In this document: one piece after another, positions 31,277 through 39,887 of the stretch
Position numbering within the stretch: position 1 is the stretch's first letter
Layout of the letters: each line of letters starts with the position of its first letter
Sequence record: SRR31156797_1217
Direction: 5' to 3' (one strand)
DNA: 64,000 nucleotides
Program-made: the position numbers and the translations under genes
Notes under the pieces: generated by a model
Told to the model about the DNA's origin: nothing
The model's input: only the letters and a program-made list of their open reading frames with translations
Database searches by the model: none

Positions 31277-31918
31277 ATGCTTAAGCTGGTGGTTTTTGAC
31301 TGTGACGGTGTCATGTTCAGCTCCCTGGAGACAAACAGGATTTATTACAATCACCTGTTAGAGGCCTTTCAATGCCCGCAGATGACCCCGTCGGAACTTG
31401 AATATGTCCATATCCACAATGTCACTAACTCCATGAAGCACATTTTCCGTAACCATACTCACATTGATATTGAGAAAGTTACATCTTATTGTCAGGGCCT
31501 GGATTACAGACCATTTCTTGAGCACATGATAATGGAGCCGGACCTTCTCGACTTTCTAAAACAGATCAAACCAGTCTATCACACTGCTATATCGACCAAC
31601 AGAACGAATACAATGGATATGGTACTTGATACATTTCAGCTTCGCTCCTGGTTTGACATGGTGGTCACCGCCAGTGATGTTGATCGACCTAAACCTGCGC
31701 CCGATGGTTTATTGATGATCCTTGATCGTTTTCAAGTCCAGCCGGACGAAGTAATTTATATTGGAGATTCAACGGTCGACAGGGATCATTGTGCCAGTGT
31801 CGGCATTGATCTAATTGCCTTTAAAAATAACAATCTCGAAGCAAAATACCACGTTGAAAACTTCACAGCTATTGCCAGCCTTCCACCTTTTCATGATGCT
31901 GACAAAAAGCACGACTAG
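31277..31918 (+). CDS. HAD family hydrolase
   Basis: FDCDGV, STNR, KPAPD, YIGDS..D. Confidence 0.9.
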   Translation: MLKLVVFDCDGVMFSSLETNRIYYNHLLEAFQCPQMTPSELEYVHIHNVTNSMKHIFRNHTHIDIEKVTSYCQGLDYRPFLEHMIMEPDLLDFLKQIKPVYHTAISTNRTNTMDMVLDTFQLRSWFDMVVTASDVDRPKPAPDGLLMILDRFQVQPDEVIYIGDSTVDRDHCASVGIDLIAFKNNNLEAKYHVENFTAIASLPPFHDADKKHD

Positions 31919-32535
31919 TCATCTTCATCCATTCGCTTCAACCCTTCCATCAAGATCATCATAAAATCACCAATCTCCCGCGCCTGCATTAAAGATTCAG
32001 GTAACCCGGGAACAAAATGAAAGTGCCCTTCTTTTTCAGAAAGAATAGCGTATACAGCCTCATGGTTGTCAAGATCTTCGAAACGAGCCGCCAAGAGGCC
32101 GCCTTCACGAAAAGTTACCCTTGCCGCTTTACCTGCCAAGTCCATGACCAAGCGACCAGTCTTCTGGTGCATATGAAAAACTTGAAGGAGCTCTGCAGGT
32201 AAAATTGCTTCAATTTTACCACTCATGACCGCCTGGGGATCATATTTGTGTTCAGCAGAATCATTGACAAGAGGCACCTCTGCCAATTGGAATTTAATGA
32301 GTCCGGTGCAACCGCCGCAAGTAAAAGTTTCATCTTTGTAATCTGCAAATTCCGTAGCCGCATAAGGTAGCAGTTGAACAAGCAGGCCTGTCAACTCGCG
32401 AATGAGGATAAGGCAAGACGGTTTCCGAGGAACGAATTCCACCGATTGATGGGTGAGAACAAACCCGTTATCATGGTTGTATAAAGGACAATTGCGCGCC
32501 TCAACAACTCTAAATTGTGCACAGAAATCAGACAT
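31915..32535 (-). CDS. DUF4388 domain protein with N-terminal Cys-rich domain
   Basis: C-terminal MSGKIE...ELLQ...QKTGRL...F.EG...EGHFHF...MEGLKRMDE; N-terminal CPLY..C..CGGC. Confidence 0.8.
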   Translation of the reverse strand: MSDFCAQFRVVEARNCPLYNHDNGFVLTHQSVEFVPRKPSCLILIRELTGLLVQLLPYAATEFADYKDETFTCGGCTGLIKFQLAEVPLVNDSAEHKYDPQAVMSGKIEAILPAELLQVFHMHQKTGRLVMDLAGKAARVTFREGGLLAARFEDLDNHEAVYAILSEKEGHFHFVPGLPESLMQAREIGDFMMILMEGLKRMDEDD

Positions 32536-32772: not shown

Positions 32773-35169
32773 ATGGCTACGGGCTCTCAACAGCTTGTCG
32801 ACGATTTCGAACAACTTCAAAGTTCTCTTGAACTTTACCCAAAGGTCAACATTGTCAAAGCTGATGGACAGCCACCTGATAATTACGAGATTGCATTCAC
32901 GCTCCGCGGCTATGTAAAAGAAGCTGATGGCACAATCTCAATAGGTAACAACCATTGCGTTCAAATAAGTCTTCCATTTGGGTACCCTCACTTTGCCCCC
33001 ACGGTAAAGCCCCTCACTCATATTTTCCATCCCGATGTGGATCCGGCCGCTGTCCGAATTGCTGATCGTTGGCAGCAGAATCCTTCCTTGGCCGATCTCG
33101 TCCTCTACATTGGAGAGATGATTTGCGGGCATACTTACAGTCTCAACGACCCTTTTAACCAAGAGGCAGCAGATTGGTACAGAGAGCACCAAGGCAATCT
33201 CCCGCTTGATTCGCTTAGTATTGCCACCATTGAAGAATCATCTCAGGACATTGACAGCCTGGTTGATGACACCTTTGCTTCGCTTGGCCTGGAAACAGAC
33301 GATTTTCTTGAGCCTGTGAAAGAATTTGGAGCTGCTGATGTAGAGCATATAGAGATGCTCATTGAGCAAAAGCAGCTTTTCGCTGCCAATAAATCGTTAG
33401 TAGAAATAAGCGATCAATTCCCAGATCGCGCAGTTATCGAAGAGAACATCAACAAAGGCCTCAAAAAAGCTGAACAACTTTTCACATTAGCTGAACAACT
33501 TGAAGATCTCGGCAAATTCGATGAAGCTATCGAAGTGATTGATAACCTTTTTGATATTTGCGTTGATATGCCGGGAAGTGAAGCCCTACGCTCCCGACTG
33601 CGGCAAGAATTTTCTTTAACCCTCCGGTCTGCTGAAAATAATATTGAAGAGCAGGTCGATGTCAGTCTGGTTGCAGCCAAGAAGGACAAGCCTGCCAAAA
33701 GCTCCCCATCCAAGAAAAGGGGAAACCAAATATCCTCCCCATCAAGAGTTAAGTTTAAGTTCAGGATTCCACTTCAGATTATCCTCTCAGCTACCGTACT
33801 GTTAGCCATTTGCATAGGTGCAATCAGCTTCTATTTTAAAGACCAGAATATCTTGAGCCGCTCTCAAGCAAACATTTTAAAAAGCCAACTCCTCATAAAC
33901 AAGAACCAATTTGAAGCCGCCCAGGAGACGCTTTATCAAGCCAAAAAATCGTTGTCAGGACTTACAGTACTTCGTTTTAAAAAGGGTGGAATGGATAAGG
34001 AAATAGAATCACTTCTCACCTCGAAAGAACTTCACGAGGGGTTAAAGGGGCACGTTCTTTATCAAGGTAAATATATCCCATCAGCCTCAGCCCAGTCGCT
34101 CAGAGAACTAGCAACATTGACAGAGCAGGCCAAATCTCTGGTCGATCAAAATAACCCTACCGACGCGCTTACGCTTTACCGGCAGGCTTTTTTCTATGCC
34201 CAGCAACATAAACTCAGTGACAAGGTTGTTGAGCTGGAAATGATAATTAAATCGCTAGAGCTCCAGCAAACTCTCACCCTTGCAGAGCAGGCTGAACTTG
34301 GGAAAAACTGGCAAGGTGCCGCAGAAACCTACCGTAAAGCACTTGAACTCTCCAGCAGCCTCTCAGACCCTAAGACTGCAACGGCCATCACCTCCCGGCT
34401 CACTGCGGCAACTTTTCGCCATGAGCTGAACCTGTCCAAGAAAACATTTACCCAGGAACAATGGCAAGAAACCATTGTAAAACTTGAACACGCTCAGCGT
34501 CTAATAGACTCTAATCCAGATATTGTTTCGGTGAAGGAGCGAAGAGATCTGCACCGATTACTTGTTAATGCAAGACTTTACGGCATCCTCTCGTCCGCGA
34601 GGGAGGCCTACAATCAAAAAAACTGGGCGAACGCTATAAATGAATATCGCAAGGCGGTAGGCCTGCTTGAAGAGGAACGAGATAATTTTGAAGGGCACTT
34701 GGATGAGTCTATTCGTAAAATCAATAAAACTGTATTGATGGTTCAAGTAGCGATGATCCAGGAAAAAGTACTGCTTGCAGAAAATCAAAGCAATCTTGAC
34801 GAGGCCCTGCATCACTCTAAGGCTATTTTGCGCCGTATTAAAAAGAGCCCTTTTAAAAATGATCCTTCAGTAGTGGATGTGCAGCGAAGAATTACCCAAC
34901 AAATCACAGCTAAAGAAGAACAAATTGCACATAATAAAAAGATTGTGTGGCTTGAAGAACACTTCGAAGAAATTTTCAGATCCAATTACCCCACCTTTAG
35001 AGGCTCACAGCTTCACTCACCCAACGCCGCATTACTGAGGAAGGTAGGTAATAAATCCATTTTCATAATCACCTGTACAGAAAAAAGTCAAGGTGCCTCC
35101 TCCCGACTGGAACTCAACTATGTATATGATGGAGAAAGTGGTACGTGGTCGGTCTACTCTGGAGAATAA
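32773..35169 (+). CDS. UBC/E2-fold domain (apparently inactive) + TM helix + TPR-like repeats
   Basis: PPDNYEI, LPFGYPHFAP..KPLTHIFHPDV, W.....LADLV, PFNQEAADWY; hydrophobic aa ~332-355; helical repeats. Confidence 0.8.
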   Translation: MATGSQQLVDDFEQLQSSLELYPKVNIVKADGQPPDNYEIAFTLRGYVKEADGTISIGNNHCVQISLPFGYPHFAPTVKPLTHIFHPDVDPAAVRIADRWQQNPSLADLVLYIGEMICGHTYSLNDPFNQEAADWYREHQGNLPLDSLSIATIEESSQDIDSLVDDTFASLGLETDDFLEPVKEFGAADVEHIEMLIEQKQLFAANKSLVEISDQFPDRAVIEENINKGLKKAEQLFTLAEQLEDLGKFDEAIEVIDNLFDICVDMPGSEALRSRLRQEFSLTLRSAENNIEEQVDVSLVAAKKDKPAKSSPSKKRGNQISSPSRVKFKFRIPLQIILSATVLLAICIGAISFYFKDQNILSRSQANILKSQLLINKNQFEAAQETLYQAKKSLSGLTVLRFKKGGMDKEIESLLTSKELHEGLKGHVLYQGKYIPSASAQSLRELATLTEQAKSLVDQNNPTDALTLYRQAFFYAQQHKLSDKVVELEMIIKSLELQQTLTLAEQAELGKNWQGAAETYRKALELSSSLSDPKTATAITSRLTAATFRHELNLSKKTFTQEQWQETIVKLEHAQRLIDSNPDIVSVKERRDLHRLLVNARLYGILSSAREAYNQKNWANAINEYRKAVGLLEEERDNFEGHLDESIRKINKTVLMVQVAMIQEKVLLAENQSNLDEALHHSKAILRRIKKSPFKNDPSVVDVQRRITQQITAKEEQIAHNKKIVWLEEHFEEIFRSNYPTFRGSQLHSPNAALLRKVGNKSIFIITCTEKSQGASSRLELNYVYDGESGTWSVYSGE

Positions 35170-37402: not shown

Positions 37403-38542
37403 TTACTTGGTGTACGCAGCGGTATGGCTGGTGTACTTGAACTGAGTGGTTGTTCTCCAAGTATCGTATGCCAACCGATAATCATCTACAGATTTATCGG
37501 TGAATGGAATACCTGTTTTCTCAAAGAATTTTTCCCAACCAATTCTTTCAGCCCACTCACCAACACGTTCGTATTTCTTGGCATCTTTTGCGTATGCTTC
37601 AAGAATGTCACGAACGACCTTAACGGTTTCAGGCCAGCGAGGAGTTGTGTTCGGCAGGAATGGTACAACCAGCTTGGAGAATTTCGGTGCGGATTTTGCG
37701 TTGGAAACCTTACCACCAACAAGAATCGCGATACCGTCACCTTCCGGATCAGCAAGAGGCATTGCAGGACACATGGTGTAACAGTTACCACAGAACATAC
37801 AACGTTCGTTGTTAACCTTAACTGTTTTAATCTCTTCGCCGTTTACTTCTGCTTTAGCAGGCTTAACAGCTCCAAGGGGACAAGAAGCGATAGCCAGTGG
37901 AATTTCACATACACCGGAGATGCGCTCATGATCGATCATTGGTGGCGTACGGTGGATACCGAGAATAGCGATATCAGAAGCATGTACAGCACCACACATG
38001 TTCAGACAACATGCCAACGCGATACGTACCTGCGCTGGAAGAGTCATGGAACCAAAGTACTCAAACAGATCATCCATAACGGCCTTAACAGGACCGGATG
38101 CATCGGTTGCAGGTGTATGACAGTGAATCCAACCCTGGGTATGAACGATGTTGGTTACACAAGCACCGGTACCACCGATTGGAAACTTGTTGCCATAGCT
38201 GGCAATGGTTTCCTTCAGAGCTGCAACCTTATCTTCAGAGTCAACCATGAACTCCACATTGTTACGAGTGGTGAAGCGACAAAAACCGTCACAATGCTTA
38301 TCAGCGATATCACAGATGTCGCGAACATAGTTTACAGTCACCAAACGTGGGCTACCACAACGTACTGTAAATACTTTGTCACCAGTTTCACTTACGTGAA
38401 CCAGCACACCAGGCTCTAAAATCTCGTGATAAAGCCACTTGCCCTTATTGTTCTTAATTACCGGAGCTAGCATATCTCCGTAGTATTTCGGTCCTAAGTC
38501 GGTAATGCGACCTTCCATAGGATTATTCGGATCGTAACCCAT
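37403..38542 (-). CDS. dsrB: Dissimilatory sulfite reductase beta subunit
   Basis: [49 protein letters not shown]. Confidence 0.99.
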
Positions 38543-38600
38543 TGTATTGTCTCCTTATTATATACGTCTCAATTCGGTTATAGGCTCAGTTGGGACTCAA

Positions 38601-39887
38601 TTACATAGCGTGACGCTTTCTGAATTCTTTAATGTCACGATCCCAACCGCCTGGTACTTCTTCTTCCTTCCAGAAGACATACGGATTGGAACGAGGCTCT
38701 TTCACGTGCTGCGGCAGAGGCTCTATTTCCATAACGCTGAGGAATGTAGGCAGACCGACACGCTGCATGGTTTCACCAACACGCTCACGGTTTTTACCAA
38801 CTTCCATCCACCAGTCCCATACCTTTTCGATAACATCAATGATGTCTTCGAAATCATTTTCCTTATTGATTTCGATAAATGGGATAACCAAAGTGGAGAA
38901 CTGTGCACCATCAAGAATCGGAGCTTTTGCACCGATGAGAATGGATGCACCTTGCTCTGCACCCGGGCGCAGTGCACGAGGCATAACATTGATGCAATGC
39001 ATACAACGGGTACACTCAGCATCATCAATCTTCAGCTCATCGCCTTCCATCCACATACAATCGGTTGGACACAGATCGATAACTTCTTTTTGAATGTCAA
39101 AAGCACCCCAGTCGCCGCCTTTATGGGCCCCACCGTTTGATGGAAATCCTTCAGCACCTGCAACATAATTCTTAACAGCATCCTGATCAATGCGGATGTT
39201 GTCTTTCCAGGTTCCAACAACGGAGAAGTCAGAACGGGCAACAGCTGCAACACAGTCGTTTGCACACGCGGAAAACTTAAACTTAAATTTGTAAGGAAAT
39301 GCAGGACGGTGAATCTCATCCTGATAATGCTGGGTCAGGTGGTTACAAAGTTCCTGAGCATCATAACAAGCCCACTCACAGCGAGACTCACCAAGACAGC
39401 ATGCAGGAGTACGCAGGTTAGATCCGGAACCACCAAGATCCTGTCCAAGATCATGTGTCAGGTCCCAGAACAGTGGCTCAAGATTTTCGGTACGGGTACC
39501 AAGGAAAACCATGTCACCAGTGGAGCCGTGCATGTTGGTCACACCAGAACCATATTTTTCCCACAGGTCCATCAAAGCACGAAGGTTTTCTGTGGTGTAG
39601 TAGAGGCCAGATGGCTGAGCAATACGAACGGTGTGAAAATGTTCAACACCAGGAAACTGTGCAGGAACGTCGGAGTAACGTCCAACGATACCACCGCCGT
39701 ACCCGAAAACACCTACGATTCCACCGTGTTTCCAGTGAGTAATCCTGTCTTTGTATGAAAGCTCAAGCTGACCAAGAATGTCCCAGACTTCTGGCTTTGT
39801 TTCAGCCTGCTGCTTGAGGTCGGTGACGAAACTCGGCCATGGACCAGTTTCCAGTTCGTCCAGTAGAGGCGTTTCATGCTTTGCCAT
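38601..39887 (-). CDS. dsrA: Dissimilatory sulfite reductase alpha subunit
   Basis: GPWPSFV, THWKHGG, HGSTGD, FPYKFKFKFSACANDC, CTRCMHCIN. Confidence 0.99.
   Translation of the reverse strand: MAKHETPLLDELETGPWPSFVTDLKQQAETKPEVWDILGQLELSYKDRITHWKHGGIVGVFGYGGGIVGRYSDVPAQFPGVEHFHTVRIAQPSGLYYTTENLRALMDLWEKYGSGVTNMHGSTGDMVFLGTRTENLEPLFWDLTHDLGQDLGGSGSNLRTPACCLGESRCEWACYDAQELCNHLTQHYQDEIHRPAFPYKFKFKFSACANDCVAAVARSDFSVVGTWKDNIRIDQDAVKNYVAGAEGFPSNGGAHKGGDWGAFDIQKEVIDLCPTDCMWMEGDELKIDDAECTRCMHCINVMPRALRPGAEQGASILIGAKAPILDGAQFSTLVIPFIEINKENDFEDIIDVIEKVWDWWMEVGKNRERVGETMQRVGLPTFLSVMEIEPLPQHVKEPRSNPYVFWKEEEVPGGWDRDIKEFRKRHAM

Follow-up and report, generated by a model that had tools for sequence, protein, structure and literature searches.

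A UBC-fold protein lacking the catalytic cysteine

The stretch of DNA examined in this work, which is referred to as the window, comprises 64,000 nucleotides of the sequence record SRR31156797_1217, and the subject of this report is a gene within it encoding a protein with an N-terminal ubiquitin-conjugating (UBC, or E2-fold) domain, in which the position of the catalytic Cys of E2 enzymes is occupied by Arg, followed by TPR-like helices, a single transmembrane (TM) helix and further TPR-like repeats. The gene (positions 32773-35169, plus strand) is an uninterrupted open reading frame of 798 codons, and its different parts are listed in Table 1.

Table 1. Coordinates of the parts of the UBC gene and of its divergently oriented neighbour (aa, amino acids; AF2, AlphaFold2; identities are mean pairwise values among 40 homologues; the 80 related loci are the best 80 of 183 stretches encoding a relative in a collection of species-representative genomes)
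Feature	Position	Strand	Remarks
Whole gene	32773..35169	+	798 aa + stop: UBC-fold domain, linker, TPR-like helices, TM helix, predicted periplasmic TPR-like repeats, beta domain
UBC/E2-fold domain, aa 1-142	32773..33198	+	identity 0.71 (highest of all regions)
HPD, aa 86-88, replacing the HPN of E2s	33028..33036	+	Asp88 in 79/80 related loci
Arg95 at the catalytic-Cys position	33055..33057	+	gapless alignment to ...PAAICLGDFW of Cys-bearing orthologues
Acidic linker, aa 143-186	33199..33330	+	low AF2 confidence; conserved motif LPLD...DSLVDDTFASLGLE.DDF; identity 0.61
Cytoplasmic TPR-like helical segment, aa 187-291	33331..33645	+	Pfam TPR_2 at aa 233-257; AF2 helices; identity 0.54
Basic juxtamembrane stretch, about aa 292-331	33646..33765	+	poorly conserved (identity 0.18); 7 Lys/Arg among last 24 residues
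Single TM helix, about aa 332-355	33766..33837	+	hydropathy scan; AF2 helix starting at aa 334; identity 0.52
Predicted periplasmic TPR-like repeats, aa 356-740	33838..34992	+	Pfam TPR_12, AF2, Foldseek TPR matches; identity 0.58
C-terminal four-stranded beta domain, aa 741-798	34993..35166	+	AF2 strands 746-794; alignment A5; family not assignable; identity 0.61
Divergent neighbour, 206 aa: four-Cys domain, then DUF4388	31915..32535	-	Pfam DUF4388, 63 bits

The characteristic motifs of the UBC fold are located in this protein at GYPHFAP (aa 70-76), IFHPD (aa 84-88), W100 and NQEAADWY (aa 129-136), and the Pfam model UQ_con (PF00179) matches aa 39-140 with 30.3 bits (E 3.7e-7), which is above its curated cut-off of 27, so that by both score and fold the protein is a member of this family. 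Among PDB sequences, phmmer matched E2 C (8tar_Q; E 9.6e-6) and more than 50 further E2 chains, and in the alignment with E2 C the Cys of the enzyme falls opposite either a gap next to Arg95 or an Arg. The AF2 model of aa 1-150, based on a 44-row alignment, has a pLDDT of 92.2 and a pTM of 0.86, and in a Foldseek search with this model 359 PDB chains were matched at E ≤ 0.001, where all 50 of the 50 chains listed are E2s or E2-containing complexes. A preliminary description of this DNA, made from its letters alone, had proposed a UBC fold deprived of its catalytic Cys, and the results of the Pfam, AF2 and Foldseek analyses, as well as the presence of Arg95 at the site, bear this out; the motifs it named, HPD and R95 (33055-33057) are likewise all present in the translation. 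However, its designation of the domain as UEV-like is appropriate by analogy only, since no UEV or RWD model is listed in the Pfam scan of the window protein at E ≤ 1 and the nearest relatives of the domain are E2s containing HPN and Cys. The domain retains the His-Pro of HPN as well as E2-like loops, and in these respects it is nearer to true E2s than to UEVs. A scan of the window protein against NCBIfam yielded noise only.

Two of the features of a catalytically competent E2 are lacking in the window protein, viz. the active-site Cys, in place of which Arg95 is found, and HPN, which has become HPD. Arg is incapable of forming either a thioester or an oxyester. Further, no conserved Cys is present within aa 1-160 in a set of 121 homologues, where the position of C62 is occupied by Arg in 90 of the sequences. 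The residue C118 of the sequence EMICG, which had earlier been raised as a possible occupant of the active site, was ruled out as a substitute nucleophile due to its poor conservation, as it is Cys in just 72 of the 121 homologues and Ser in 47 of them. The UBC domain itself is the most conserved region of the protein (Table 1) and it is under strong purifying selection. Its invariant residues are found in LPFGYPHF.P, FHPD.DP.A, W..PSL and PF..AA.WY. From what is generally known of E2 structure and from the alignment with E2 C, we take LPFGYPHF.P and W..PSL to correspond to the loops that bind E1 and the RING/HECT E3s, and FHPD.DP.A to be the active-site stretch.

Membrane topology, TPR-like repeats and C-terminal domain

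A hydropathy scan reveals one hydrophobic segment in the whole protein, starting at about aa 330. The 24 residues preceding the TM helix, with 7 Lys/Arg and no acidic residue, are richer in basic residues than the 24 following it, which include 3 Lys/Arg and one Asp, and an N-in topology is therefore favoured. By the positive-inside rule, the UBC head would be cytoplasmic and the last ~440 residues periplasmic. The TPR character of the remainder is indicated by a Pfam TPR_2 match at aa 233-257 (32.8 bits; cut-off 27), by weaker TPR matches further along, including TPR_12 at aa 500-549 (29.9 bits, slightly below the cut-off of 30.1), and by helical pairs in the AF2 model over aa 187-291 and about aa 357-740, which together qualify the protein for this family. 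As the TPR_2 match precedes the TM helix, TPR-like helices are present on either side of the membrane. The segment immediately past the membrane contains a conserved YFKDQN.LS.SQAN. In these respects, the proposal of a membrane-anchored TPR protein in the preliminary description agrees with the single hydrophobic segment, the above-cut-off TPR_2 match and the N-in charge bias.

The AF2 model of the full-length protein has a pLDDT of 75.6, with low confidence at the acidic linker and the basic stretch (about aa 288-333), and a Foldseek search with it led to generic TPR scaffolds only, with low TM-scores, BamD and the TPR anti-sigma factor DdvA being among them; no architecture-level analogue of the whole protein was found in this search. 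For the C-terminal beta domain, a search of the ESM Atlas with aa 695-798 gave no usable match, and the profile of this domain (A5), when compared with PDB sequences, matched only short repeats of designed kelch proteins, which are not meaningful. The acidic linker (33199-33330) is modelled as disordered, yet its motif LPLD…DSLVDDTFASLGLE.DDF is strongly conserved. The linker may act as a short linear motif, or it may fold back on the UBC domain.

Species distribution and synteny

In a word-indexed search, 222 proteins of similar length were matched at E ≤ 0.001, and the 120 of these that were listed are 633-877 aa long and derive from Desulfobulbus, Desulfogranum and metagenome sources; several of them are already labelled by their sources as "ubiquitin-conjugating enzyme E2" or "ubiquitin-protein ligase". 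The 80 related loci (see Table 1) belong to Desulfobulbaceae, including Candidatus Electrothrix and Electronema, with protein identity extending down to 26%. In the family of Desulfogranum marinum, the gene is present in 69 of the 72 genomes that are at least 90% complete, with one match each in 68 of these and a stop-broken copy in the remaining one. In an even sample of the phylum, the gene was found in 9 of 401 genomes, one of these matches being weak and interrupted by stops.

The gene is part of a block extending from secDF to dprA that is syntenic in most loci. Upstream of the UBC gene, this block contains genes for SecDF, a CxxCxxCC protein, HD, HAD and DUF4388 proteins, and downstream of it those for KpsF-like (SIS+CBS), BirA-like, DsrB, DsrA, Pgi, Rpe and DprA proteins, where the labels are in part from Pfam and in part from reading of the translations. 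In the window, SecDF-like, CxxCxxCC, HD, HAD and DUF4388 genes lie upstream and SIS+CBS and BPL_LplA_LipB genes lie downstream. The KpsF-like gene is convergent to the UBC gene, and the two are not co-transcribed. The GC content at the locus is unremarkable. Based on these observations, the gene is a single-copy, syntenic, vertically inherited core gene of Desulfobulbaceae in a housekeeping setting, and the housekeeping context that had been suggested from the window alone is thus seen across the loci. Further along the window, at 37403-39887 on the minus strand, are two open reading frames of 379 and 428 aa, which on reading of their translations are dissimilatory sulfite reductase beta and alpha; these putative sulfite reductase frames share 76-95% identity among loci of Desulfobulbales.

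Cysteine and arginine at the active-site position

At position 95, the 80 related loci contain Arg in 76 cases, Cys in 2 and His and Ala in one each. The two loci with Cys, which have the same neighbours as the others, come from metagenome-assembled genomes of Desulfofustis and of "Desulfobulbaceae bacterium SB20". In terms of family assignment, Desulfofustis and Desulforhopalus are members of Desulfocapsaceae and Desulfogranum is a member of Desulfobulbaceae. Within Desulfocapsaceae, the family of the Desulfofustis genome, the gene is found in 114 of 121 genomes, and all 30 of the loci that were fetched read FHPDFD..AICIGDFW, i.e. they combine Cys with HPD. Since Cys is present in 30/30 of these loci and Arg in 76/80 of the loci above, the change from Cys to Arg in these orthologous core genes is a derived one that extends across the family, and each of the two states is tightly conserved inside its own family. 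The loss of Cys noted in the preliminary description is thus conserved within Desulfobulbaceae, but it does not extend to Desulfocapsaceae.

A broader view was obtained by scanning 1.84 billion cluster representatives in full with aa 1-154 as the phmmer query, which gave 943 matches at E ≤ 0.001 (97 of them at E ≤ 1e-30). In the query and the best 150 of these 943 matches, the residue pair at the HPN and Cys positions is HPD+Cys in 68 sequences, HPD+Arg in 40, HPN+Cys in 19 and another combination in 24, these last having S, K, H, A, G, L, Q, P, D, Y, N or F at the Cys position, or a gap (one fragment); Ser accounts for 7 of the 151 representatives. In a quick FastTree phylogeny of 148 N-terminal domains (152 columns, with the two trait columns removed and the root assumed on the HPN+Cys rows), of which only the starred splits are dependable, an HPN+Cys clade of 18 rows (support 99) lies outside the Arg and Cys clades, which group together. 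The Arg clade, which includes the query, consists of 49 rows (39 with Arg; support 98) and the Cys clade of 72 rows (63 with HPD+Cys; support 94). This tree requires at least 20 changes of the residue at the Cys position.

Some related proteins show other states or forms. In a small clade of relatives of 960-990 aa (P0171, P0181 and P0226), the Cys position is occupied by Lys (…PSAIKIA…); the replacement of the catalytic Cys by Lys is an experimental means of trapping E2-ubiquitin as a stable isopeptide. Two loci from the same phylum (L087 and L088, in genomes G032 and G071) contain open frames of ~1060 aa whose N-terminal UBC domain has HPN but, owing to a deletion, no Cys (FHPNIGEIVDVGSVW), and TPR-like helices apparently come directly after this domain. 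These proteins look like a third, independent Cys-less form. Further, a second, shorter paralogue, in frames of ~530-580 aa, is present in the Desulfocapsaceae genomes G470, G488, G500, G505, G512, G515, G521, G524, G529, G532, G540, G545 and G551, and its N-terminal domain is 35-45% identical to that of the Desulfofustis UBC protein (L080 query).

Relationship to E2s of a conjugation operon

Most of the HPN+Cys proteins are without a TM helix, and their architectures include UBC plus zinc ribbons, UBC-FHA-protein kinase and trypsin-like peptidase-UBC. Using an alignment of this group, at least 534 related metagenome loci were found, of which 80 were fetched and 42 with useful flanks were analysed. 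The gene order around these E2s is conserved, and domains were assigned in two of the loci (L104 and L128). The order starts with a YukD-like ubiquitin-like protein (Ubl) of ~90 aa (32.5 bits; cut-off 27), whose end reads ...LRLQPEITAG plus a short tail, and continues with a ThiF E1 (185.6 bits), a JAB peptidase, an FHA protein, a zinc-ribbon protein, a Prok-RING_1 protein, a protein with Prok-RING_1, DUF4190 and Trypsin_2, a UQ_con E2 with a zinc ribbon and, in ninth place, a DUF2752 protein. In the 18 loci with at least 7 kilobases of upstream flank, the E1 cluster was seen in 12, JAB in 14, FHA in 14 and zinc/RING proteins in 15. The operon, which is apparently complete and widespread, is present at L104:1580-9244, at L128:1363-9205 and at ~15 further metagenome loci (L097-L176). 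A prokaryotic operon class with Prok-RING_1, and the definition of Prok-RING_1 itself, reportedly go back to Burroughs, Iyer and Aravind in 2011. Operons of this general type have been predicted bioinformatically (PMC3417536; PMC11601603).

The E2 of the L128 operon aligns with window positions 32788-33246 with 30% identity over 153 aa (E 6.5e-30), and the other operon proteins (Ubl, E1, JAB, FHA, RING and DUF2752) have no match in the window, all E-values being 0.04 or higher. The E2 match places the window UBC domain within a bacterial E2 lineage which elsewhere serves a complete Ubl conjugation operon. As judged from these sequence comparisons, the window domain descends from the E2 of this Ubl-E1-JAB-RING-E2 conjugation lineage, and its Arg form arose within an E2 lineage and does not represent a reader family of ancient standing. 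It had been considered earlier, as a finding that would refute the proposal, that close homologues could retain HPN and Cys and be located in standard E1-E2 operons. This applies in part: the sister orthologues have Cys (with HPD), and more distant relatives (30% identity) have HPN and Cys and lie in the operon described. The origin of the TM-TPR part by fusion with a TPR gene located 3' of an operon E2 was also considered and dropped, as phmmer comparisons of aa 150 to the end of P0001 (the window protein), P0180 and P0171 with 344 open reading frames from the operon contexts detected no similarity.

The window protein itself lies outside an operon of Ubl, ThiF E1, JAB and Prok-RING. Searches of the window for ThiF and JAB gave no match, the lowest E-value being 0.029, over 22 aa. 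Beyond the window, statements about partners rest on relatives, viz. five related genomes, two of them Arg-type and three Cys-type. ThiF-family matches are present in all five, numbering 2-5 in each and all located in open frames of 207-431 aa, with similar counts in Cys-type and Arg-type genomes, and the operon E1 as a query gave partial matches only, with 27-43% identity. The YukD family was detected in none of the five genomes, with positive controls in B. subtilis and C. glutamicum, and Prok-RING_1 in none of them above cut-off. Prok-JAB was found above cut-off only in the Electrothrix genome, where it adjoins a ThiF gene on a contig other than that of the UBC gene. The operon Ubl was detected in 0/72 and 0/4 genomes, both searches being without a positive control, and ubiquitin (PF00240) in 0/5, which is uninformative as the control was silent everywhere. 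No PADLOC model matched the window protein (P0001) or its neighbour at E ≤ 0.01. The earlier statement that no E1/ThiF, JAB or Ubl gene is recognizable in the window is thus upheld, and the searches of related genomes agree with it within their scope.

The DUF4388 neighbour

The divergent neighbour of the UBC gene (Table 1) has an N-terminal domain with invariant C16, C41, C73 and C76, which matches no Pfam family. A gene of this kind adjoins the UBC gene in 60 of the 80 Arg-type loci, always in a short form of 183-228 aa, and, among the 28 Cys-type loci for which an upstream flank is available, in 20, where it is a long form, aligned over aa 25-366, carrying cNMP_binding in addition to DUF4388. 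In Desulfocapsaceae, the neighbour (e.g. L078:8721-9833, minus strand) is ~370 aa long with cNMP_binding located between the four-Cys domain and DUF4388; the Arg-type protein of ~206 aa is without it. The Cys-to-Arg change thus coincides with the loss of a cyclic-nucleotide sensor in the neighbouring protein. Several DUF4388 paralogues are present per genome. A complex prediction for aa 1-295 with the DUF4388 neighbour, made without supplied alignments, scored 0.10 against a mark of 0.34. The DUF4388 signalling protein is a putative partner, and the sole candidate that emerges from gene context.

Proposed function and alternative explanations

The interpretation that we favour, to which we assign an even chance of being correct, is that in the window protein an E2 domain has been recruited to serve, without catalysis, as the cytoplasmic binding head of a TPR scaffold that spans the envelope. 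The protein is a bitopic inner-membrane protein whose N-terminal UBC head stands alone, without a conjugation operon, and under this proposal the head would no longer bear a ubiquitin-like protein covalently. The surfaces used for binding would be the conserved cleft of the former active site, which contains Arg95, and the invariant loops equivalent to those by which E2s bind E1 and E3, and Arg95 may interact with an acidic group or with the carboxylate of a C-terminus. In this way, a cytoplasmic partner would be kept at the membrane by the head and linked to an envelope component by the TM helix, the periplasmic TPR-like repeats and the beta domain at the C-terminus, whether for scaffolding or for relaying a signal across the envelope. 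A reader or scaffold function of this kind is our inference from the features described above.

Several considerations weigh against this interpretation. What suggests that the domain binds a partner is its conservation alone, and the placement of the C-terminal 440 residues in the periplasm is a prediction from the positive-inside rule. The gene neighbourhood carries little information, as the entire region is syntenic. The searches for Ubl and E1 cover known families, and a divergent or unrelated carrier would escape them. The presence of Cys in 30/30 loci of the sister family means that this position is functionally important, and the ancestral protein may have been chemically active, as that of Desulfocapsaceae perhaps still is, so that Arg need not indicate a plain loss of function. 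Finally, the absence of Cys alone is weak evidence of inactivity, though Arg cannot form an ester. In this context, we take the Bub E2s to be the Cys-less E2-like domains that were formerly predicted to be inactive (by Iyer et al. 2006). The Bub E2s are reported to conjugate via oxyester intermediates (PMC11601596).

Among the alternatives, it is a minor but real possibility that the function resides in the periplasmic TPR array and beta domain, e.g. in envelope assembly or tethering, and that the UBC domain is a structural, oligomerising or auto-regulatory plug without an external partner. This would be in keeping with the periplasmic repeats making up about half of the protein and being conserved (identity 0.58, and 0.61 for the beta domain), with the Foldseek matches of the full model being TPR scaffolds only, BamD and DdvA included, and with the location of the gene next to the SIS+CBS (KpsF-like) gene. 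However, it is the UBC domain that is the most conserved region (0.71), and its invariant residues are not limited to the core but are concentrated in loops at the surface and in the stretch that was formerly the active site (LPFGYPHF.P, FHPD.DP.A.R and W..PSL), while the KpsF-like gene is convergent and not co-transcribed with it.

A second explanation, which we regard as unlikely, is that the UBC head and the divergent DUF4388 protein form a two-gene signalling module, in which the pseudo-E2 is the membrane dock and the Cys-to-Arg change went alongside the loss of the cyclic-nucleotide sensor. The pairing of the two genes at 60/80 Arg-type loci (short form) and 20/28 Cys-type loci (long form with cNMP_binding), which holds even as the identity of the UBC protein drops to 26%, speaks for such a module. 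However, this adjacency should not be interpreted as showing that the two proteins function together, as it may be mere inheritance of a block that is syntenic as a whole. At 11 loci whose upstream flank is long enough, from cable bacteria and others, the UBC gene does not have this neighbour beside it, the neighbour is missing at 8 of the 28 Cys-type loci, and its paralogues are numerous in these genomes. Further, the Cys-to-Arg change and the loss of the sensor fall on a single branch and due to this they count as one event.

It is also conceivable, but quite improbable in our estimation, that both residues serve the same ligand: the Cys form of Desulfocapsaceae would be covalently charged with the C-terminus of an unrecognised carrier, and the Arg of Desulfobulbaceae, including the cable bacteria, would bind the same carboxylate non-covalently and relay this via the TM helix and TPR repeats. 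If this were true, the Desulfocapsaceae orthologue would be a housekeeping bacterial E2 outside defence operons, and a covalent relay would have turned into a permanent trans-inner-membrane "reader".

We consider it very unlikely that the window protein is still a conjugating enzyme, charged by a housekeeping E1 of the MoeB/ThiF type with a Ubl of the sulfur-carrier type, or acting through another nucleophile. ThiF-family genes are indeed present in 5/5 of the related genomes searched, Cys is retained without exception in the sister family (30/30) and Ser is found at this position in 7/151 representatives. However, the site in the window protein is an Arg that is incapable of forming a thio- or oxyester, the domain has no conserved Cys, HPN has changed to HPD, no dedicated E1, Ubl, JAB or RING protein was found in the window or the related genomes, and the number of ThiF genes shows no difference by type of genome. 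The recent acquisition of the gene from a eukaryote, e.g. as an effector-like E2 mimic, is disfavoured and extremely improbable, for although the top PDB sequence matches are eukaryotic E2s, the gene is syntenic and single-copy over two families of free-living Desulfobulbales, the GC content of its locus is unremarkable, and the bacterial operon E2s are closer, with 943 cluster representatives matched at E ≤ 0.001.

Comparison with known systems

Pseudo-E2 domains such as UEV, RWD and FTS are known as eukaryotic adaptors, and bacterial E2s as components of mobile operons for defence or conjugation. We found no published description of the protein studied here, or of an E2 in Desulfobulbaceae, Desulfobulbus or cable bacteria, though an earlier mention is possible. 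The preliminary description had put it forward as a candidate for an undescribed system, and this remains valid in that no published account was found; it does not hold for the domain as such, as members of the family are already labelled automatically as E2 in their sources. The match to an E2 domain is thus not new, and what is new is a pseudo-E2 that is bacterial, membrane-anchored and encoded by a core gene. The significance of this lies in an E2 domain that departed from its operon, was fused to a trans-envelope TPR protein and became a core gene in an ecologically important order that comprises sulfate reducers, sulfur disproportionators and cable bacteria. Further, the clean split between the families (Cys in 30/30 loci, Arg in 76/80) provides a natural experiment on the transition from enzyme to pseudoenzyme. 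In one review, only single instances of homologues of the catalytic domain of human E2s are noted in bacteria (PMC11354881).

Outside its own architecture, the nearest relatives of the N-terminal domain are the operon E2s, with which it shares the UBC motifs, including a His-Cys spacing that is shorter by one residue. The operon E2s, which are 210-350 aa long, contain HPN and Cys as well as zinc ribbons at the C-terminus, and most of them are without a TM helix. In the window protein, by contrast, HPD and Arg are found, the UBC domain is joined to a TM helix and TPR repeats, and the operon neighbours are all missing. With the Desulfocapsaceae orthologues (Desulfofustis, Desulforhopalus), it has in common the UBC-TM-TPR architecture of ~800-900 aa, the genomic position and the core status, but these orthologues differ in keeping the Cys (30/30) and in having a neighbour with an additional cNMP-binding domain. 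In comparison to the eukaryotic UEVs (Mms2/Uev1, Tsg101) and the E2 variant FTS/AKTIP, the window domain is bacterial and membrane-tethered, and it has no UEV/RWD match. With the defence E2s (CBASS Cap2, Bil), it shares the E2 superfamily; however, those are mobile, whereas the window protein has no PADLOC match and is a vertically inherited housekeeping protein. Lastly, E2-like domains without the conserved Cys are present in bacteria in the polyUbl operons, and these presumably correspond to the Bub pathways. According to Iyer et al. 2006 (PMC1779556), the E2/RWD-like domains of the polyUbl operons are likewise bacterial E2 folds without a conserved Cys, and such Cys-less domains were predicted there to be inactive. 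However, those domains sit among polyUbl and JAB-E1 genes (PMC1779556), whereas in the window protein the site is occupied by Arg and the gene is located in no such operon.

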